Source of the DNA: a bacterium
GTDB taxonomy: Bacteria > Krumholzibacteriota > Krumholzibacteriia > G020349025
Assembly: GCA_031362565.1 (NCBI GenBank)
Contig: JANLSU010000114.1
Coordinates: 1 to 15,587, forward strand
Length of the DNA stretch: 15,587 nucleotides
Reading direction: 5' to 3'
Within the stretch, counting starts at the first letter, position 1. Each line of letters starts with the position of its first letter. Shown here piece after piece: positions 1,099 to 15,587 of the stretch. The notes below the pieces were generated by a model. The model was not told where the DNA came from. It ran no database searches and was given only the letters and a program-made list of their open reading frames with translations. The position numbers were made by a program, and so were the translations under genes.

Positions 1099-2037
1099 AT
1101 GACCTCTCGACATCACCGCATCGCGATTCGACTCCTCGGTGCGGCACTCGCCGGCAGCGTCGCCTGGCAGGCCTCTCCGGCGGCGGCCTCCCCCGGATTG
1201 GTGGGAGACCTGTACGTGAGCGGCGACATTTCGAACCGCGTGTTCGAGTACCATGGTACGAGCGGCGCTTTCCAAGGCATTTTCTGTATTCCGGCCGCTT
1301 CCACCGGTGCCATGTCGGTGCATTTCAATGCTGCCGGCACCCGCATGCTCGTCGGCTCCACCGCGAACGGGGTCGAGGAGCGCGACGCGGCGACCGGCGC
1401 CTACATCAAGACCTACGAGCCCTTGGGTGGCTGGCAGTGGGGGGCGATCTACGCTCCGAACGGCAATGTGTTCATCGGCAGCACTGTCACCAACGACATC
1501 CGCGAGTACAACAGCGTGACCGCCGCCTTCGTGCAGGTCATTACCGCGGTGACCGCCCCCGCCGACATGCGCATTGGGCCGAACGGCAACCTGTACATTT
1601 GCTCGTTTGGCGGCGGGTTCGTGCTCGAAGTCAACGCCACGAACGGCAACTTCGTCAGCACCTGGAATACGCCGCCCTCCGCAGCGCCCAACGACATCGC
1701 GTTCCTGCCGAACGGCGAAATCCTGGTCACGGCAATGCGCACGAATGTCGTCTATCACTACGATGCAACCCACACTCTCCTCGGCAGTTTCTGGAACGCC
1801 TTCTGGGGTAATCCGCACGGCATCGTTCTGAGTCCGTGGAACGGCCACATCTTGGTGGCCGACGGCGTGACCGGCCAGGTCCACGAGTTCGACCCCGTGA
1901 CGTTCGCGGAGATCAATGCGGCGTTTCTCGTGCCGCCGCCCGGCGACAAAATCGTCGATCTCGAGTTCAGGCCCGGCGCCGGCCCCGTGCCGGTGACGCC
2001 ACTCGACTGGGGATCGGTCAAGCAGCTGTTCCGCTGA
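1099..2037 (+). CDS. Secreted NHL/Vgb-like beta-propeller protein with C-terminal WGxxKxxFR tail
   Basis: ATG 1099 preceded by GGAG. Sec signal peptide MTSRHHRIAIRLLGAALAGSVAWQASPAAA. About six ~40-aa repeats (GDLYVS, TRMLVGS, PNGNVFIGS, PNGNLYICS, PNGEILVTA, WNGHILVAD), each followed by a V/I-x-E/H-Y/F/R/V-like strand. Ends PVPVTPLDWGSVKQLFR*. Confidence 0.85.
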   Translation: MTSRHHRIAIRLLGAALAGSVAWQASPAAASPGLVGDLYVSGDISNRVFEYHGTSGAFQGIFCIPAASTGAMSVHFNAAGTRMLVGSTANGVEERDAATGAYIKTYEPLGGWQWGAIYAPNGNVFIGSTVTNDIREYNSVTAAFVQVITAVTAPADMRIGPNGNLYICSFGGGFVLEVNATNGNFVSTWNTPPSAAPNDIAFLPNGEILVTAMRTNVVYHYDATHTLLGSFWNAFWGNPHGIVLSPWNGHILVADGVTGQVHEFDPVTFAEINAAFLVPPPGDKIVDLEFRPGAGPVPVTPLDWGSVKQLFR

Positions 2038-2238: not shown

Positions 2239-2349
2239 CGTAAGGCCTCCGGGGGGTCGGGCTGCGTCCGGGCCCGCCTGCCGGCGGATGATGCCATATC
2301 CGCGCGCCCAGGCGCGCGGCCTCCCTCGGACGATTGATCGCTCGATCGC

Positions 2350-2378
2350 TTGACGCCACTGACGCCGGCTCCCATATT
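2350..2378 (+). promoter_or_regulatory. Putative sigma70 promoter of the ECF-kinase operon
   Basis: TTGACG (2350-2355), 17-bp spacer, CATATT (2373-2378). It overlaps a tandem TGACGCC repeat (2351-2357, 2360-2366). Confidence 0.55.
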
Positions 2379-2432
2379 TCCGCTTTCTCTAGCCCCTCGG
2401 TTTCGCCCCCGAATCCCTGGAGTGGGCGGCAC

Positions 2433-3056
2433 TTGAGCTGGACGACCACCAACGAGTCTCTCATCGACCGGCTGCGTGACCCGCACGACGAGGCCGCATG
2501 GCGGCGCTTCGATGCGCTGTACGGCGAAGTCATTCTGCGCTACGCAGGTCGCCGCGGGCTGGGGTTTGCCGATGCCGAAGACGTGCGCCAAATCGTTCTC
2601 TTGAGCCTGGTTCGGGCGCTGCCAAACTTCGAATTGCAGCACGAGCGTGGGCGCTTCCGGAGCTACCTGGGGCGCGTCGTCGGCAATGCCGTACAGCGTT
2701 ACCGGGCCCGGCCGTACCGGTTGCGCGAAGTGGTCGAGCCGGACCTCGCGCCGTTCGAAGATCATGCACCCACCGTCGAGTCTTCCGACCTTTGGGAGCG
2801 CGAATGGACGGAGCATCACTTGCGGCGCGCCCTCGAAACGGTGCGCCAGACGTTCGATGCACGTTCGGTCGAGATTTTCGGCCGCTTGCTGCGTGGCGAC
2901 GCGACGGACACCGTGGCATCCGAGTTCAATGCCAGCGAGGAAGCCGTCCACAAAGTGCGGCAACGCGTCCGTGAACGGTTGCGGCAGATCGTCAGCCGCC
3001 AAGTTGCCGACGAAGCGGCGTTTCTGGCTGCTTGGCCGCCCAGGCAAACACCGTGA
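2433..3056 (+). CDS. ECF-family RNA polymerase sigma factor (kinase-associated, planctomycete-like type)
   Basis: N-terminal TTNESLIDRLRDPHDEAAWRRFDALY, region 2 DAEDVRQ…GRFRSYL, and region 4 HTH (TDTVASEFNASEEAVHKVRQRVRERL). Start placed at TTG 2433 because of GGAG at 2419-2422 and the promoter at 2350-2378; the ORF track start at 2334 is probably too long. Confidence 0.9.
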   Translation: MSWTTTNESLIDRLRDPHDEAAWRRFDALYGEVILRYAGRRGLGFADAEDVRQIVLLSLVRALPNFELQHERGRFRSYLGRVVGNAVQRYRARPYRLREVVEPDLAPFEDHAPTVESSDLWEREWTEHHLRRALETVRQTFDARSVEIFGRLLRGDATDTVASEFNASEEAVHKVRQRVRERLRQIVSRQVADEAAFLAAWPPRQTP

Positions 3057-5266
3057 GCCCCCGGCTTGATGGCGCGAGCCGCGACGACCGCCTGCCGCCG
3101 GAGCGCGATCTCGACGCACCCGACTGGCTCGAACGCCTGCGTGCGGCCGACGGTGCGCCAGGAATCGGCACGCTTGGACGTTTCGAGATCCATGGTGAAG
3201 TCGGGCGCGGCGGCCAAGGAGTCGTGTACCGCGCCACCGACCCCGATACCGGCCGCCGTGTCGCCGTCAAACGCTTCGTCACCGCCGGGCGCGGTGGCAC
3301 CGGCGTACATCTGCGGCTCCAAAACGAAATCCTGGCGACTCGCGCCCTCTCTCATCCAGGCGTCGTTCGCATCCTCGGGGTGGAATCGGATGGCGAGTGT
3401 CCGCTTCTGGTGCTCGAATGGATCGACGGGCTGCCGCTCAACGAATGGGCGGCCGGCGACGGGACGCGACCCTCCATCGACGCGATCGTGGAAATGACCG
3501 GGAAGGTCTGCGAGGTGCTGCTGCACGCCCACCAACGCGGCGTGATTCATCGCGATGTGAAACCTTCCAACGTGTTGGTCGACGCCGGCGGGCAGCCGCA
3601 CGTGCTCGATTTTGGCCTCGCGAAACTGGATGGCACGAGTGCCACGACCACCAGCGCCCGTTTCCTGGGAACACTGGCGTACGCGGCGCCGGAACTTGTA
3701 ACGGGCGGGCCCGCAGCGGTGGATGCGCGCTCGGATGTGTACGCCCTCGGCGTCATCCTGCACGAGATGCTCACCGGGCAATTGCCGTACGCGCTCGGGA
3801 CGTCGATTTTTAGTGCCGTCGAAGCGATCCGTGGCGATGAACCGTTGCGCATGCGCGCCGCCGGTGTCGACTCGGCGCTCGAAGCCATCGTGCGCATGGC
3901 GCTCGCGAAGGCGCCGGAAGAACGCTATCAATCGGCCGACGCGCTCTTGGCGGACTTGCGACGCTACCGACGTGGCGAGCCGGTCGAGGCGCGCGGACGT
4001 ACCGCTTGGGAATCGATGCGCGGTTTTGCGCGGCGCCATCCGGGGCCAGTGACGATTGTTGTGACGCTGACCGTCGCATCGTTGGTCTTCGGCACAACGA
4101 TGGCGGTGCTGCATCAACGCCTGCAACGCGCCCTCGCCCGCACCCAACGCATCGACAGTTTCTGGACGGCGGCGTTCGGCGGGCAAGATACGCCGCTCGC
4201 GTGGTCCGAACTCGACGTCGAAGATGTCCTGAACCGCGCTTCGACCCGGGCCACTGCTGAACTGCGTGATGAGCCGGACATCGAATTCGGCGTGCGCACC
4301 TTGCTGGCGCGCCGCTATATCGATCTCGGGCTCTGGCGCGAAGTCGGACGGCAATGTGAGCGCGCCCTGGTCCTGAGCGGCGGGGCGCGTGCCGACGAAA
4401 AACAGTCGGTGATGGCGCTTGCCTATCTCGGCTTTGCGCATTGCCTGACCGGTCATGCAGACGGTGATTCCTTGCTGCATCGCGCCCTCGAACTCGAACA
4501 GGGCCGGCCAGCATCCGATCCGTTGCGCTGCGCCGTGATCCTCAACCTGATCGCCAGGTTCCACTGGGGAGAGCAGCAGCCGCCGAATTTTGCCGCCGCC
4601 GAGATCGACTATCAACAGTGCTTCGCTGCCCTCGGGCGCCGGCCGGGCCCAAGCCATGCGCTCTTGAACGCGTGGCGCGGATTCGCCCGCATGAAGCAAC
4701 TGCAGCAGCAGCCGGCAATCGCGATCCCCGCCTTCGAACGGGCGCTCGTCGTGCTCGATGACTTACCCGACGAACCAGGCGCGATTCGAATCGGCCTTCT
4801 GGAAGGCTATGCCGATGTTTTGGCGCAGGAAACACGCTGGGCCGAAGCCGAGCGCGCCTATCGCAGCGCGATCGAGCTGCGTGGTGGATTACTCGATGAC
4901 CGGTTGCCGCCGTGCTGGGCGATGCTTGCCGGCACCGTGTTCGCGCAGGGCCGGGCCGCCGAAGCGATGCAGCTCTATCACAACGCCATCGTGGCGCGCT
5001 GCGACCGTCTCTGCGAACGCTTCCCGAAGGACCGGGCGCAGTTTCAGCAACAGGCGGCGATCGTCCGGCGCGAGGGGCTGCGGCCCGATCAGGTGGCGCC
5101 GTTCGTCGATCTCTTGCGGCAGCGCGCGCCAGACATCGAACCACTCTTCCGGTATACGGCGGATCACTTGGTCGCCGTGCACCAGACACTCGGCGACTCG
5201 CGAACCGCCGCGGCATTGCGAGCGGCGCTCGATGCGTCGGTTGCGGCGGCGCGGCCGGCAGAGTAG
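3053..5266 (+). CDS. Hanks-type Ser/Thr protein kinase with transmembrane helix and TPR-like C-terminal region
   Basis: Kinase motifs GRGGQGVVY, VAVK, HRDVKPSN, DFGLAK, GTLAYAAPE, DVYALG. TM segment PVTIVVTLTVASLVFGTTMAVL. TPR-like helices (EAERAYRSAIEL, EAMQLYHNAI). GTG 3053 overlaps the sigma TGA (GTGA). Confidence 0.93.
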   Translation: MSPRLDGASRDDRLPPERDLDAPDWLERLRAADGAPGIGTLGRFEIHGEVGRGGQGVVYRATDPDTGRRVAVKRFVTAGRGGTGVHLRLQNEILATRALSHPGVVRILGVESDGECPLLVLEWIDGLPLNEWAAGDGTRPSIDAIVEMTGKVCEVLLHAHQRGVIHRDVKPSNVLVDAGGQPHVLDFGLAKLDGTSATTTSARFLGTLAYAAPELVTGGPAAVDARSDVYALGVILHEMLTGQLPYALGTSIFSAVEAIRGDEPLRMRAAGVDSALEAIVRMALAKAPEERYQSADALLADLRRYRRGEPVEARGRTAWESMRGFARRHPGPVTIVVTLTVASLVFGTTMAVLHQRLQRALARTQRIDSFWTAAFGGQDTPLAWSELDVEDVLNRASTRATAELRDEPDIEFGVRTLLARRYIDLGLWREVGRQCERALVLSGGARADEKQSVMALAYLGFAHCLTGHADGDSLLHRALELEQGRPASDPLRCAVILNLIARFHWGEQQPPNFAAAEIDYQQCFAALGRRPGPSHALLNAWRGFARMKQLQQQPAIAIPAFERALVVLDDLPDEPGAIRIGLLEGYADVLAQETRWAEAERAYRSAIELRGGLLDDRLPPCWAMLAGTVFAQGRAAEAMQLYHNAIVARCDRLCERFPKDRAQFQQQAAIVRREGLRPDQVAPFVDLLRQRAPDIEPLFRYTADHLVAVHQTLGDSRTAAALRAALDASVAAARPAE

Positions 5267-5337: not shown

Positions 5338-6339
5338 TCAGGGCGCCGGCGGCACGTGGCAGTCCGGCACGGTGTGGACGAGCGGCGGAATCGTCGTCAC
5401 GTACCAGCCAATATCGAGAGCGTCTTGCGCCGTGAGGCCACCAAACGCTGCCCCTGGTCCCGCCGGCATGGGCGGACAAATCGGTTGGCCGTCGGGGTCG
5501 ATCCCCGTCAACAGGAGCGTTCGTATCTGCTCGGCCGTGTCGCCGATGATGCCGGTCGAGTCAGGCGTGATGTTCGCCGACCAGATGACGGCTGGGAACG
5601 GCGGTGTCGGCACGCCCAGTTCCTCGGCGCCGAAGCCGCGCCCGCCGGCGAAAATACTGTCGAGCTTGACCGGCACCGGCCCCTGTGCAGGCGCCGTGTG
5701 ACATTCGATGCAGACGCCGGCGAAGGCGGCTAGGTACCGGCCGCGCACGGCGTTGTTGTAATGCGGATCGCTCGCAGCCAGCGTCGTCACCGGGATCGAC
5801 GCCGCCGGAATCGGCTGTGCCGCGGTGGTGAACGGGAATCCCAACGGTTGGCGCTCGGGAACCGGGTTGTTGATGGCCGGGATGGAGCGCAAGTAGGCGA
5901 CGACGGCGCTCGCGTCGTCGGCCGTCATGTTGTGGAACACGAAATAGGGCATGATCGGGAAGAGCGGCTCGCCGCTATCGTCGACACCGTTCTGGAAAGC
6001 ATCCTTGATCTGCGCATCGGTCCAGCTCTTCAAGCCGGTCGAATCGGGCGTCAAGTTGGGCGCCCAGATCAACCCGACCGCGCCGTCGAATGGGTCGAGA
6101 TCCGCGAAGGGTGTTCCCGACAGCAGCTTGGTCATGTCGAGCTCACCAGTGATGGTGCGCGGGGTGTGACAATCGATGCACGCCGCAACGTGGTTGACGA
6201 TATAGTTCCCGCGCGCGATCACGGCGGCCTGATCCGGACCGGCGGGATTGTCGTCCCCACACGAAACCACGAAGCCGGCAAGCGCCATGAAGAGCGCCGC
6301 GAAGAGCGCGAATCGGGCATTCCGCGTTCGACCGTTCAC
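5338..6339 (-). CDS. Diheme c-type cytochrome lipoprotein
   Basis: GTG 6339 with GGAGG RBS. Lipoprotein signal (…FAALFMALAGFVVS|CGDD). Two CxxCH motifs (CIDCH 6180-6166, CIECH 5712-5698) in duplicated domains RGxY…CxxCHT…W(A/S)xN(L/I)TPDSTG…MP, with candidate distal Met ligands. Confidence 0.9.
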   Translation of the reverse strand: MNGRTRNARFALFAALFMALAGFVVSCGDDNPAGPDQAAVIARGNYIVNHVAACIDCHTPRTITGELDMTKLLSGTPFADLDPFDGAVGLIWAPNLTPDSTGLKSWTDAQIKDAFQNGVDDSGEPLFPIMPYFVFHNMTADDASAVVAYLRSIPAINNPVPERQPLGFPFTTAAQPIPAASIPVTTLAASDPHYNNAVRGRYLAAFAGVCIECHTAPAQGPVPVKLDSIFAGGRGFGAEELGVPTPPFPAVIWSANITPDSTGIIGDTAEQIRTLLLTGIDPDGQPICPPMPAGPGAAFGGLTAQDALDIGWYVTTIPPLVHTVPDCHVPPAP

Positions 6340-6602
6340 CTTAATCCTCCAATGTCGAGTCTCGAGGGTGTTCACCCCTACTGGTGCCGAAGTTTGGAAT
6401 TCATCGTTGCGTGCCGACGCGCTCCGGATTGTCCCTCTGGGCGCGGTCCTGCGAGCCGCACGTCGGCGCTGCAACGGGGCTGAAGCTTAAAGGCTGGGGC
6501 GGTTCTTGTTCAACGGGGCCCCGGCGGCGACTCGGGCCGCCGGTCATGGGCGGCGTCCGGCAGCGCAGATCGACGATCGTCATGACGCCGCCCGCGGCAC
6601 AC

Positions 6603-10508: not shown

Positions 10509-12566
10509 TCAGTCCGTGACCACGACGCGCACCGTATCGCTCCGAGTGCCCTGCCGCAAGCGCACCATGTACACGCCGCTCCGCAGTTCAGTCGTTGCGC
10601 CGACGCTCAGCACGTGCTGGCCCGCAACCGGTGCCGGCACCGCAACTCGCGCCACGCGCCGTCCCGCCACGTTGAAGAATTGCAGTTCCGCCGGCTGCCG
10701 CGACGCCAAGTTGAACTGGAAGTGCGCCGGCCTGCGTCCCGGGTTGGGCCACACGCCCGCAAAGCCGAACCGGGCGACGAGCGGTACTTCGATCCAAGTC
10801 TCGCCACCGAATCGAGATCCCGCCGCGCCGCCCAGGTCCAATCGATAGCCGTAGCGTTCTCCGGGGTGAACATCGGTGTCCATGAGGCCGGCACGGCCGT
10901 CGTGGCCGACCAGGACCCGTTCGTGATTCGACCACATTGCATCGGCCCCGGCGCGTTGCACGATGACGTCGCGCCCCGCCCAGCCGGGAAGCGACCATTC
11001 GATGGCATTGCCCGCTGCCGAGGCGGTTGCATACACGAGCGACCCGATGACCGGCGTCGTCGAGTTCTCGATGATTTGAATGTGGCTCTGTGAAGCAATG
11101 CCGGCGCGCACATTGCGGAGGCCGCTCGGCCAGTCGACGATGATGCTGTCGGCGACCGCAGCATCCGCAAGACCAAAGTGCACGTCGAGCGCGTTCATGC
11201 CATTGAAGCTGTTCTGCGCGCTTACTTCGCGCATCTGCCAGCGCGGCTGGCCGCCGATGGTCGCGAGCACCCGGACGCGGGCCCCGATGGCGGCGCGATT
11301 GCTGACCGTGCCGACCAGGTGAATCACGAGCCAGCCGTTGCCGTTGGCGGTAGTGTTGTGGAAGAGCCCGAACGACACCGGCCCTCCCGTCACGAACATG
11401 TCCATGCGGCCGTCACCGTCGTAGTCGCCACTCGTGGCGCCATAGTGCGCCCCGCCGTTCGTGAATCCCGGCAGATCGAGCGACGTGAAGCTGCCGTTGC
11501 CTTCGTTGCGATAGAAGCGCGTCGGCGCCGCCCCGTCGTTGGTTACGACGCAATCCAGGTCGCCGTCGTTGTCGAAATCCTGCCATACCGACGCCAGCGA
11601 TAGATTGGCGTCCTGCACGATCGGCCCGGCCTGGGCAGGCGTCTGCGCCACGAAGGTCCCGCCGTTGTTGCGATACAGCCGGTTCGCCATGCCATTCGTC
11701 GTACCGGCGTAGTTCGTCAGGTAAACATCGAGATCGCCATCATTGTCATAGTCGATCCAGTTGTAGACCTGGCCATCTTGCAAATCGGTCCCCAATGGCG
11801 CCGTGTTGATGCGCTGGAACCAGTGCGCCGCGGCCTCGTTGCGATTGCGATAGAGAAAATCGCGCGCTACGGCGCCCGCTGGGCCGGAACCAATGAAAAG
11901 ATCGATATCGCCATCCTGATCGTAGTCGGACCAGGTGGGAATGGTGTACGGCGCCAGACCTTGCGCGACGATCGAAGTATCGACGCGCGCAAAGGTGCCG
12001 TCGCCGTTGTTGTGCCACAGCCGGTTGGGATTCGCGATACCGTTGAAGCCGTTGGCGGCGGCCGTCACGAGATCGACGTGCCCATCGCGATCGTAGTCGC
12101 CAAAGGCGCAGCCCCACGCCTTGTCGGCGAGTCCGTTGCCGATAGCACCGGTCGTGACTTGCGAAAACGTGAAATTCCCCTGGTTCAGATAGAGAAAGGA
12201 GCCGAGTGGATCGCCACCCGACAGGAACACATCGAGATCGCCATCATTGTCGACATCGGCCCAGGTGTTGCCGAGCGATGACGTGTGATTAGTAAACGGC
12301 ACGGTGAAGCGCGTGAAACTGCCGCCGCCGTTGTTGCGAAAGATGCCGGCATTGCCGTTGATGAATAGGTCGACGTCGCCGTCCGAATCCGCATCCACCC
12401 AGCTCGCGCCGCCGTATTGGTTGACGCGAACGCCGAATTGCACGATGGGATTCGCCCCATCGGTGATCTTGGTGAAGGTCTGGGCGCCCGCGGGGCCCGT
12501 CCCGAGGCTGAGGCAGAGGCCCAGGCCGAGAACGAGCCCCCGGGCCCACGCCGGTTGGATGCGCAT
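10509..12566 (-). CDS. CRTAC1-like FG-GAP repeat / ASPIC-UnbV protein with Fn3-like linker and T9SS/FlgD-like C-terminal domain
   Basis: GAAGGAG RBS and signal peptide ending PAGA|Q. Seven DxDxDGxxD repeats. ASPIC/UnbV signature (WLVIHLVG..SNRAAIGARV…VHFGL…IIVDWPSG). C-terminal WPNP…FNVAGRRV…SGVYMVRL…RVVV. Confidence 0.92.
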   Translation of the reverse strand: MRIQPAWARGLVLGLGLCLSLGTGPAGAQTFTKITDGANPIVQFGVRVNQYGGASWVDADSDGDVDLFINGNAGIFRNNGGGSFTRFTVPFTNHTSSLGNTWADVDNDGDLDVFLSGGDPLGSFLYLNQGNFTFSQVTTGAIGNGLADKAWGCAFGDYDRDGHVDLVTAAANGFNGIANPNRLWHNNGDGTFARVDTSIVAQGLAPYTIPTWSDYDQDGDIDLFIGSGPAGAVARDFLYRNRNEAAAHWFQRINTAPLGTDLQDGQVYNWIDYDNDGDLDVYLTNYAGTTNGMANRLYRNNGGTFVAQTPAQAGPIVQDANLSLASVWQDFDNDGDLDCVVTNDGAAPTRFYRNEGNGSFTSLDLPGFTNGGAHYGATSGDYDGDGRMDMFVTGGPVSFGLFHNTTANGNGWLVIHLVGTVSNRAAIGARVRVLATIGGQPRWQMREVSAQNSFNGMNALDVHFGLADAAVADSIIVDWPSGLRNVRAGIASQSHIQIIENSTTPVIGSLVYATASAAGNAIEWSLPGWAGRDVIVQRAGADAMWSNHERVLVGHDGRAGLMDTDVHPGERYGYRLDLGGAAGSRFGGETWIEVPLVARFGFAGVWPNPGRRPAHFQFNLASRQPAELQFFNVAGRRVARVAVPAPVAGQHVLSVGATTELRSGVYMVRLRQGTRSDTVRVVVTD

Positions 12567-12716: not shown

Positions 12717-13616
12717 TCAAGGGTCCGCTGGGTCCCCATGCGGCGTGTGGTGGGCTCGCGCCTTCTCGGCCGCCACGAGCCGGGGCGGTCCGAGTTCCTC
12801 GATGCGATAGCCGCCGCTGTGCGTGCGGTTCTTGGCGTCGGTGAAGAAATGGGCCCGGCGGCGCGGCGGCAGCCGGCGCACGAAACGGCCGCGCGCCCGC
12901 AGCGTCGCCCCGAGCATGGCGCGGGTGAGCGGCAACGGCTTCGGAAAGCCGAACGACTCGATCATGCGTTCCTCGAGCATGGCGTAGATGCCATAACGCA
13001 CCACCGGACTCACGACGCGCGGCACCCAGGACGCAAAGAGATCGCGCGTCGCTGTGCCGATCCGCTGGTTCGTGTCGGCGAAACGGAATTGGTCGCGCTC
13101 ATAGGCCAGTGACCAGGCCGCGAATGCTTCGTAGGACGGCGGGATCACCTTGATCCCCATGCGGACGCCGATCTCGCGCCAGAAGCAGTAATAGGCGCGC
13201 TGCTCGTTCGGGCACGTCGGCCGCCAGCCGAAGCGATCGATCCAGCGAATGGGCTCGTAGATGAACGTCGAGAGCACATACAGGAAGTCGTCGTTGGAGA
13301 TCTTGTAGTGGCCGTGGGCCCAGTTCATGCGCTCGAGGGCGGCTTTGCCGCGGCCGGTTTCATAACCCCACTCGTACATTTCCGCGACCAGGATCGAGGT
13401 GTCGTCATAGCGGCGCTGAGTGTGCTTGTAGAACTCGCCCGTCCGGTCGAGCAGCTTCGAAATGCTGGGAACGCAATACGTCCGGTACAAGGCGATCTCG
13501 AGCGCCCGGATCGAATCCCACGGGAACTCGTGTCCGAACGACAGGTGCACGATGCGCTGATGGTCGGCTTCGGGATCGAGCCGTTCGATCTCGTGCAGGA
13601 TGTCGAAGCGTCCCAT
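12717..13616 (-). CDS. Oxygenase MpaB family (DUF2236 / Lcp-like) protein
   Basis: ALYRTYCVPSISKLLDRTGEF…RRYDDT, RMNWAHGHYKISNDDFLYVLSTF and FWREIGVRMGIK match my recollection of the MpaB/DUF2236 family. GGGGAG RBS upstream of ATG 13616. Confidence 0.85.
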   Translation of the reverse strand: MGRFDILHEIERLDPEADHQRIVHLSFGHEFPWDSIRALEIALYRTYCVPSISKLLDRTGEFYKHTQRRYDDTSILVAEMYEWGYETGRGKAALERMNWAHGHYKISNDDFLYVLSTFIYEPIRWIDRFGWRPTCPNEQRAYYCFWREIGVRMGIKVIPPSYEAFAAWSLAYERDQFRFADTNQRIGTATRDLFASWVPRVVSPVVRYGIYAMLEERMIESFGFPKPLPLTRAMLGATLRARGRFVRRLPPRRRAHFFTDAKNRTHSGGYRIEELGPPRLVAAEKARAHHTPHGDPADP

Positions 13617-14101: not shown

Positions 14102-15587
14102 GAGCCTGTCCGAGTAATCCCCGATTTCAGGGTAGACAGACCGGCTGAATTGCGGTTTTTATGCAGCATGTCGAAAACCTTCCGCCCCTGGAACATCGAG
14201 CAGGTCATGCTGCTCCCACCCTCGGTCCGAGACTTCGTGCCCGAGGGACACCTGTCGCACTTTGTCCGGGACACGGTCTGCGAGTCGTTGGACTTGTCGG
14301 CGATCCTGGACGCCTACACCGAGGAGCGGGGCTATCCGCCTTACCACCCGGTGATGATGACGGCACTTCTGCTGTACGCGTACTGCCAAGGGATCTACTC
14401 GTCGCGTCGGATCATGAAGGGCTGCCAAGAGCGATTGGACTTCATGGCGGTGACGGCGATGCAGAAGCCGGACTTTCGGACGATCAGCGAGTTTCGCCGG
14501 CAGCACCTGAAGGCCTTGAGCGGCCTTTTCGTGCAGGTGCTGCGCCTGTGTCAGAAGGCGGGCATGGTGAGCCTGGGCCACGTGTCGCTCGACGGGACCA
14601 AATTGAAGGCGAATGCGTCGAAGAACAAGGCCATGAGCTACGGCCGGATGAAGCTCCGGGAGCCGGAGCTTGCAGCCGAGGTGAAGAAGTGGCTCGAATC
14701 GGCGGAGGCCACGGATCAACGCGAGGATGCAGAGCACGGGCCGGATCGTCGCGGCGACGAGATGCCGGACTGGGTCGTGAGCAAACAGGAGCGGCTGGCG
14801 AAGATCCGCGAAGCGAAACAGGCCCTGGAAGCGGAAGCCCAGGCCCACGCCCAAGCAGAGGCGCAGGCTGCTGCCGCGGAGAAGAAAAAGAAGGGTGGCA
14901 AGCCCGGCTCGCGTCCGCCACAACAACCGAGCGGAATCCCGAACGACAAGACGCAACGGAATTTCACGGATCCGGAGAGTCGGATCATGAAGACGCGCGA
15001 TGGATTCGTGCAGGGTTACAACGCGCAGATCGTGGTGGACAGCAAACACCAAGTGATCGTCGCGCAGGACGTGACGACGTCGCCAACCGACGTCCAGCAG
15101 CTCGAGCCGATGGTCGCGCAGATCAAGACCAACATGGGACGGCAGGCCGAGGAGTTTTCGGCGGACGCGGGCTACTGCTCGGAAGCAAACTTGAAGGTAC
15201 TCGATCGTCGACATATCAACGCGTACGTGGCAACGGGCCGCCAGAAGCACGGCCAGAAGTCCGCGACCGCAGGGAAGAATTGCAGTGGCGCTCGAACTCG
15301 AGCCATGCGAACAAAACTTCGGCGAGCGGGTCACCGCAGCCGGTATCGCCTGCGCAAACAGATCGTCGAACCGGTTTTCGGTCAGATCAAACAAGCGCGC
15401 GGCTTCCGACAATTCCTGCTGCGCGGACAGGACAACGTCCGCGGCGAGTGGAGCTTGATCGCCACGGTGCACAACCTGCTCAAGCTGGCCGCCGTGACCC
15501 GGCAACCCGCTCAAACCAGGGCGTGAGCTGCGTCGCAAGACGTTTCGTGACATCTCGCCACCGCGACAACCGCAAGCAGATCACCGA
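14102..15587 (+). mobile_element. IS1182-family insertion sequence; right end outside the window
   Basis: CTAG (14098-14101) is followed by candidate left IR GAGCCTGTCCGAGTAA and then the transposase. No matching right IR is seen before base 15587. Confidence 0.8.
14168..15526 (+). CDS. IS1182-family DDE transposase
   Basis: N-terminal DUF772-like region (LLPPS…PPYHP.MM..LL.Y.Y..GI.SSR…PDFRTI..FR). Catalytic motifs DGTK, ADAGY and VEPVFG.IK; TDPESR.MK and GYNAQ also present. Reading frame intact. Confidence 0.95.
   Translation: MSKTFRPWNIEQVMLLPPSVRDFVPEGHLSHFVRDTVCESLDLSAILDAYTEERGYPPYHPVMMTALLLYAYCQGIYSSRRIMKGCQERLDFMAVTAMQKPDFRTISEFRRQHLKALSGLFVQVLRLCQKAGMVSLGHVSLDGTKLKANASKNKAMSYGRMKLREPELAAEVKKWLESAEATDQREDAEHGPDRRGDEMPDWVVSKQERLAKIREAKQALEAEAQAHAQAEAQAAAAEKKKKGGKPGSRPPQQPSGIPNDKTQRNFTDPESRIMKTRDGFVQGYNAQIVVDSKHQVIVAQDVTTSPTDVQQLEPMVAQIKTNMGRQAEEFSADAGYCSEANLKVLDRRHINAYVATGRQKHGQKSATAGKNCSGARTRAMRTKLRRAGHRSRYRLRKQIVEPVFGQIKQARGFRQFLLRGQDNVRGEWSLIATVHNLLKLAAVTRQPAQTRA

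Follow-up and report, generated by a model that had tools for sequence, protein, structure and literature searches.

A phylum-wide C-terminal tag on small exported proteins of Krumholzibacteriota, a candidate sorting signal for a T9SS-like apparatus

The window, that is, the whole stretch of 15,587 nucleotides analyzed, is contig C41 of a 5.4-Mb genome (65% GC). An ORF of 312 amino acids beginning with ATG at position 1099 encodes a beta-propeller of the NHL-repeat type, and positions 1981-2037 (+) specify its end, GPVPVTPLDWGSVKQLFR-stop. The features of this gene, together with the gene bearing a second type of signal in the window, are the following:

1099..2037 (+): exported beta-propeller (NHL-repeat type), 312 aa, with the tag at its end; from the ORF, Pfam NHL, the structural model and PDB matches
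1099..1182 (+): likely Sec signal peptide, predicted from the sequence and a heuristic rule (basic N-region, hydrophobic core, Ala-rich end)
1183..1968 (+): propeller passenger, with its final strand I-V-D-L-E-F at 1951-1968; from the model and propeller matches in PDB
1984..1998 (+): front half of the tag, P-V-P-V-T, at offsets -8 to -4 from the Trp; putative sortase cut site
2005..2037 (+): back half of the tag, D-W-G-S-V-K-Q-L-F-R-stop, amphipathic helix; putative docking element
10509..12566 (-): FG-GAP/ASPIC protein with a classical T9SS type A CTD (10518-10754)

A probable outer-membrane barrel, open at the left end of the window and without a Pfam family (94-987, +), lies directly 5' of the propeller gene and ends in F-R-Y, and a 58-aa cysteine-rich protein without NCBIfam match (CPYC ... 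DCQVCC; 2045-2221, -) is encoded convergently with it. The window also contains an ECF-type sigma factor gene overlapping that of a Ser/Thr kinase with TPR repeats (2334-5266, +), a lipoprotein with two cytochrome c motifs (5338-6474, -), an MPAB/Lcp-type oxygenase (12717-13616, -) and an IS1182-family transposase scoring above cut-off (14150-15526, +).

The AlphaFold2 model of the propeller, built with 105 sequences, had a pLDDT of 93.7, with strands running from residues 10-14 to residues 257-262. The last blade is closed at residues 257-262 and the tail was placed outside the propeller, as a separate helix at residues 276-283 modeled with low confidence (block pLDDT 62-68). The possibility that the tail is the final propeller strand was thus ruled out, in agreement with the earlier note on this DNA, which had taken it for a sorting signal standing after the last blade.

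That note had described the end as WGxxKxx[FY]R. Before any training, a search of the genome's complete six-frame ORF set (83,881) with this pattern gave 35 matches, 34 of them within 4 residues of the stop, and 43 of the 50 matches to the looser WG..K..[FYW] were also terminal. A matrix trained iteratively on the terminal matches and applied with a threshold of 18 bits to 754,929 terminal and 6,418,092 internal positions, the internal ones being scored only if W, F, Y or L was the anchor residue, recovered 127 terminal tails and no internal one; the next scores below the threshold were 16.2 and 11.1, and the tail in the window scored 36.0. Since both the untrained pattern and the matrix matches are so strictly terminal, the tail pattern is not due to chance. 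The tag has about 17 residues and reads [PVT]-[VT]-[GAS]-V-[EQ]-x-x-[TS]-W-[SG]-x-[VI]-K-x-L-[YF]-R-stop, Trp and Lys being each present in 123 of the 127 tails. Ser is more common than Gly at position +1 (56 and 46 tails, respectively) and Tyr than Phe at +7 (102 and 24), so that WG understates the family. The pattern first described was therefore real and terminal, but too narrow at +1, and a V-x-V motif, found 5-8 residues before the Trp in 104 of the 127 tails, is part of the signal. Position -6 is occupied by Gly (48), Ala (46) or Ser (16), followed by V/I/T at -5. A terminal Arg, usually single, was found in 91 tails, and the end fell exactly 8 residues after the Trp in 87, with Lys and Arg among them. 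The back half is amphipathic, with hydrophobic residues at 0, +3, +6 and +7, Lys at +4 and Arg at +8. At the nucleotide level, synonymous codons are freely chosen, Ser is encoded by both TCN and AGY, all three stop codons are used and the 40 nt 3' of the stop hold at most 0.18 bit per position. This freedom of codons and stops indicates selection on the peptide and rules out a DNA element over the stop codon.

The 127 tagged passengers fall into 76 BLAST clusters, among which the window protein is a singleton, and the motif is hence not confined to homologues of this propeller. A signal-peptide rule was passed by 97 of the 117 tagged proteins of 150-600 aa versus 690 of 2,357 control ORFs, this rule being a home-made and lax one, not SignalP, and the control set including some miscalled ORFs. 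The description given in the earlier note, of a portable and strictly C-terminal tag lacking a TM segment on unrelated exported proteins, was in this way borne out, as was its expected enrichment in secreted proteins. Tagged proteins are small (median 246 aa, only 2 of 127 above 500) in comparison with the CTD proteins of the same genome (median 733), and the domains identified in them include choice-of-anchor N, CHRD, DUF4114, DUF4082, beta-helix, kelch, trypsin, phosphoesterase and ScyF-like NHL. The joint alternative of a propeller-fold part, a DNA-level element or a chance pattern can claim the tail Lys, which belongs to the 20 columns that do not vary across 105 propeller homologues; against the 76 unrelated families, the position outside the modeled propeller, the free codons and stops and the replacement of the tail by PEP-CTERM in homologues, its probability is close to nil.

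This replacement was seen among the 120 propeller homologues listed of the 286 found, where the tag closes 107 sequences, a PEP-CTERM-like end is present in 3, and the other 10 have a longer C-terminal domain. The three PEP-CTERM-like ends follow the last propeller strand directly, two of them scoring above the TIGR02595 cut-off, and a cluster-mate is named as a PEP-CTERM protein of Phycisphaerae. The longer domain, of about 130 residues, is found in P0021, P0030, P0034, P0038, P0039, P0059, P0063, P0076, P0092 and P0099, of which three are labelled Planctomycetota; it had no NCBIfam match in the two scanned and is possibly another sorting domain. Within the genome under study, at least 149 proteins match TIGR04183 and 232 carry a CTD according to a local profile, and no PEP-CTERM-like end was detected among the 4,117 called genes. 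None of the 127 tailed proteins carries a CTD by the local profile, and 38 of them have a homologue among the 232 CTD proteins. In five of the nine passenger pairs listed the signal switches at the junction, with the tag in one member and a CTD, or an Ig-like domain plus CTD, in the other. Tag genes are barely nearer to CTD genes than other genes are (28 of 112 versus 613 of 3,787). By sequence comparison, the tag is at the position that PEP-CTERM or a T9SS CTD occupies in homologues. Being common to 127 mostly unrelated proteins whose relatives bear known surface signals, it probably represents a miniature address label not described before, and we consider it very probable that it is a sorting signal. 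It appears to be a real and phylum-wide short sorting tag, apparently unpublished, as neither the tag nor the LipA/LipB pair presented below was found described in the literature searched, which was mainly open-access.

The tag was compared with the known families of C-terminal signals. In the 41 of the 127 tailed proteins that were scanned, no Pfam or NCBIfam model covered the tail, and neither TIGR04183 nor PF18962 gave a match; the same NCBIfam library recognized PEP-CTERM on two propeller homologues. Tripartite signals such as PEP-CTERM (TIGR02595), GlyGly-CTERM, MYXO-CTERM and WGxxGxxG-CTERM (NF038039) are described as having a TM segment after the signature and a terminal cluster of 2-5 basic residues (bioRxiv 10.1101/2023.06.07.544157). 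Like them, the tag is short, terminal, present in many copies per genome and carried by unrelated exported passengers. However, it has neither the TM segment nor the Arg cluster, the residues of its signature form part of a soluble amphipathic helix and it is distinct from WGxxGxxG-CTERM. This agrees with the earlier view of the tail as not PEP-CTERM-like, PEP-CTERM being instead what takes its place in propeller homologues. The resemblance to the T9SS type A CTD (TIGR04183, PF18962) consists in a C-terminal position on signal-peptide proteins, a similar linker motif, presence in the same genomes and exchangeability. Nevertheless, CTDs are described as beta domains of 70-100 residues (PMC11285876) and, for the short ones of Prevotella intermedia, of 43-55 aa (PMC11969387), so that a beta-sheet domain of 43-100 residues stands against a tag of about 17 with a single predicted helix. 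PorV reportedly recognizes a beta-sheet bearing motifs B, D and E (PMC11969387), which are absent from the tag. The tag differs also in its bias to small passengers and in a helix that is common to the lipoprotein LipA.

The likeness to CTD proteins concerns the front half of the tag. A motif P-T-D-[VA] was learned only from 224 CTD linkers (log-likelihood 242 versus 62-69 in four shuffles). At offset -8, 55 of the 127 tails scored at least 3 bits with it; none of 32 other offsets gave more than 9 such tails. By this likeness to CTD linkers, a motif of cleavage-site type is present before the helix of the tag. The reverse test, with the tail matrix on CTD linkers, was weak (46 of 227 versus 95 of 800 controls), and the residue after the presumed cut is Asp in CTD linkers (0.65) versus Gly/Ala/Ser in tags. 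PorU sites are reported in the linker before the CTD, with Gly/Ala/Ser preferred after the cut and, in Prevotella intermedia, Ile at the following position (PMC11969387). Because of its CTD-linker likeness and of the Gly/Ala/Ser at -6, as in the published sites, the tag front is a candidate PorU site, and the sequences make its cleavage by PorU rather probable. The window protein is one of 9 among the 127 with Pro at -6, which counts against cleavage there, as proline at a cut is generally a poor bond for proteases.

The earlier note had suggested possible handling by a divergent T9SS-like or a novel apparatus. SprA, PorV and PorU, which T9SS requires, are all encoded in the genome: a SprA match of 450 bits (cut-off 200), two PorU of 538 and 535 bits (cut-off 420) with intact His and Cys motifs, eight full-length PorV-family matches and 13 C25 domains. 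In addition, a PorU-like match was found in 151 of 151 genomes of the phylum, over the cut-off in 117. Models of GldM and GldN gave no match in this genome and four others, with a Bacteroidia control matched, although the GldM model (TIGR03517) also misses the motor in some other SprA-positive genomes; in contrast to described T9SS, GldM/GldN went undetected in the tag-bearing lineages searched. On contig C85, one run (L046:7381-19651 and L047:1837-10444) contains two near-identical porU genes, porV, an M6-like CTD protein and an NHL protein, as well as an Omp85 protein and a barrel of 1,175 aa that matches SprA weakly (E 1.8e-5). The suggestion made earlier is supported at the sequence level by SprA, the PorV family, the two PorU and the linker motif; the export, cleavage and anchoring of tagged proteins by such an apparatus are putative.

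On contig C89, the gene of an 801-aa barrel is followed by those of two lipoproteins, here called LipA and LipB, which are paralogues (96.5%); LipB is encoded at C89:14599-15180. No Pfam or NCBIfam family was found for any of the three, nor a solved relative by sequence for LipA/LipB, and in the ESM Atlas LipB and the barrel match only unnamed look-alikes. The LipB model has a SnoaL/NTF2 fold, close to PDB 3rob (Z 14.0, rmsd 2.7 over 125 residues) and 3b8l (Z 13.6, rmsd 2.6 over 133 residues); the fold is alike at a sequence identity of 11-14%, and LipA/LipB differ from these proteins in being lipoproteins with a presumed peptide-receptor role. No docking site for the helix could be located when the LipB model was aligned structurally. 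The order barrel-lipA-lipB recurs in Krumholzibacteriota, with a barrel match in 18 of 30 loci, and in Eisenbacteria. A divergent polysaccharide deacetylase gene (L175:6311-7471, contig C89) follows lipB in 17 of 30 loci.

LipA itself was found to end in the helix of the tag. Among the best 150 of 1,956 LipA-family matches, each above 114 bits on the core alone, the top match to the helix matrix trained on cargo fell in the last 22 residues in 141, a figure inflated because the query profile contained the helix. The logo of these 150 reads T72/S58-W136-S135-x-L104-K137-x-x-F83/Y20, and the front motif was present in none of them versus 87% of cargo tails. Only LipA of other lineages shows this likeness; in most Krumholzibacteriota LipA, that of this genome included, the helix at the end is degenerate (best window near the end in only 12 of 21 seeds), and a profile comparison of a nine-sequence Krumholzibacteriota LipA alignment with the tail alignment gave no match (0.2%). 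At several Eisenbacteria loci the helix is on LipB and the Trp has been lost from LipA. As LipA has the helix without the front motif and cargo tags have both, the cargo tag consists of a CTD-type linker motif plus a LipA helix; the helix on LipA and this two-part anatomy, both read from sequence comparison, are new here. A helix that is never cut, serving for docking or membrane binding in the periplasm or on a membrane face without outer-membrane crossing or sortase, would agree with the clear amphipathic pattern, with a LipA helix devoid of front motif and with the Pro at the presumed cut of the window protein. We regard this as improbable, because it leaves unexplained the conserved front motif of 104 of the 127 clients and does not suit passengers with domains known alongside surface signals (choice-of-anchor N, CHRD, DUF4114, ScyF-like NHL); moreover, near-invariant Trp and Lys would fit a protein pocket better than lipid binding.

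Regarding LipB, the protein of the operon has no helix, six LipB paralogues of the genome end in the tag (one of them scoring 16.2, below the threshold) and 18 of 73 LipB homologues carry it. The front motif was found in none of five tailed LipB paralogues. In the AlphaFold2 model of one of these, the tail block had a pLDDT of 89 and the linker before it 73, which suggests docking of the tail on its own domain, the contrast of 89 with the 62-68 of the propeller tail being an uncontrolled one between two different proteins and alignments, drawn without a contact list. On these sequence data the chances that LipB is the receptor of the tag are about even. A profile of LipB matched 122 of 151 genomes of the phylum, 21 of 27 chosen genomes and 24 of 81 Bacteroidota. 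The profile is narrow, and no more than 19 candidates were scored for the phylum; it gave no LipB match in 29 of the 151, nor in one tail-bearing Eisenbacteria genome (G179). The genomes in which LipB was missed are one of the points in favour of a rival in which a PorV-family barrel or SprA itself recognizes the tag as a miniature T9SS signal, LipA being a client without cut site and LipB not the receptor. The front motif and the signal exchange would also suit this, and candidates are available in the eight full-length PorV-family matches and in the 1,175-aa barrel of the porU-porV locus. We hold such direct reading to be unlikely, though the strongest of the rivals: the CTD that PorV reportedly binds is a beta-sheet (PMC11969387), and neither the tags on LipB paralogues, often without front motif (0 of 5), nor the move of the helix from LipA to LipB in Eisenbacteria would be explained. 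It counts against docking on LipB, for its part, that the tailed LipB paralogues may be mere passengers.

The taxonomic range of the tag had been suggested in the earlier note to include Eisenbacteria, Krumholzibacteriota, Latescibacterota and Poribacteria. A tail profile matched 151 of 151 Krumholzibacteriota genomes and 59 of 61 in the Eisenbacteria phylum, which confirms the suggested range for these two; the sole Latescibacteria-labelled record checked lies in the window's own GTDB phylum, and for Poribacteria a 2014 paper reports TIGR04183-like domains without Por machinery (PMC3909097). The profile also matched 2 of 81 Bacteroidota sample genomes, with single weak matches, and 1 of 51 genomes from the phylum to which a Zixibacteria record belongs. 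A DNA-pattern scan for the tail gave at least 125 stretches. Records titled Fibrobacteraceae, judged by shared match coordinates, sit in the phylum sample of the window itself, and therefore the tag is not indicated in Fibrobacterota. Single pattern matches in Bacteroidia, Polyangiaceae, Humidesulfovibrio and Zixibacteria showed no expansion and were taken as chance, stray contigs or single clients. In one Bacteroidia record (L088:643-1230, +), a membrane protein encoded between tsaE and alanine dehydrogenase has a tag-like helix end without the front motif, by chance or as a relic.

Ignavibacteria/Kapabacteria have one conserved client family, which the tail profile overlooked and whose 120 listed homologues all carry the tail:

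L120:1204-1635 (-): client of 130 aa, with signal peptide, Ig-like domain and nearly invariant tag

Its Ig-like domain precedes T9SS CTDs elsewhere, V-S-S-V stands as its putative cut motif, and its gene neighbours (maf, a MATE transporter) offered no receptor candidate. The cultured Rosettibacter primus has both lipA-lipB (L220) and the tagged client (L120). LipA/LipB also occur in 24 of the 81 Bacteroidota genomes, without expansion of the tag. In a cross-table of that sample, whose genomes are not independent and in which kinship is a confounder, LipB was found in 24 of 44 SprA-positive genomes without GldM over cut-off, in 0 of 20 with GldM and in 0 of 17 without SprA. This distribution bears on the idea that the 801-aa barrel, LipA and LipB export or anchor small proteins by themselves, without SprA and with PorU acting afterwards, if at all. 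The conservation of the barrel-lipA-lipB order in both phyla with tag expansion, a barrel outside any Pfam or NCBIfam family and the small size of tagged proteins relative to CTD proteins (246 and 733 aa) speak for it. It seems nonetheless quite unlikely, only slightly less so than an uncut helix, since Ignavibacteria/Kapabacteria have a tagged client and no barrel match beside lipA-lipB, and since LipB was seen only in SprA-positive genomes of the 81-genome Bacteroidota sample.

The reading that we favour joins LipB with PorU, because of the signal exchange, the front-motif likeness, the LipA-helix likeness and the SprA, PorV-family and PorU genes. The tagged protein would be exported by Sec, and its nine-residue amphipathic helix would dock on LipB at the site used by the helix of LipA itself. 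The cargo bound to LipB would be handed to SprA/PorV, and the PorU sortase would then cut the front motif and attach the protein to a surface glycolipid. For this scheme as a whole, with docking on LipB, PorU cleavage, a T9SS-like machine without motor and surface anchoring, we estimate a probability of about 0.45. More tentatively still, LipA-LipB, with the barrel in two phyla, might be the missing periplasmic adaptor of motor-less T9SS-like secretion across FCB lineages, its helix having been copied from LipA, read by LipB and converted, in Krumholzibacteriota and Eisenbacteria, to a general signal by which more than 100 small proteins per genome are exported and anchored.

LipA, LipB and the barrel are candidate parts for SprA/PorV/PorU function where GldM/GldN are not detected, and with Rosettibacter primus the tag system is open to testing in culture. 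To our knowledge, every T9SS signal described so far is a folded beta domain and every short bacterial signal of sortase type has a TM helix; a soluble nine-residue helix together with a cut site would be a third design of sorting signal. Finally, about 3% of the genes (127 of some 4,100) in genomes of two large uncultured phyla, mostly annotated as hypothetical, would be assigned a location through the tag.
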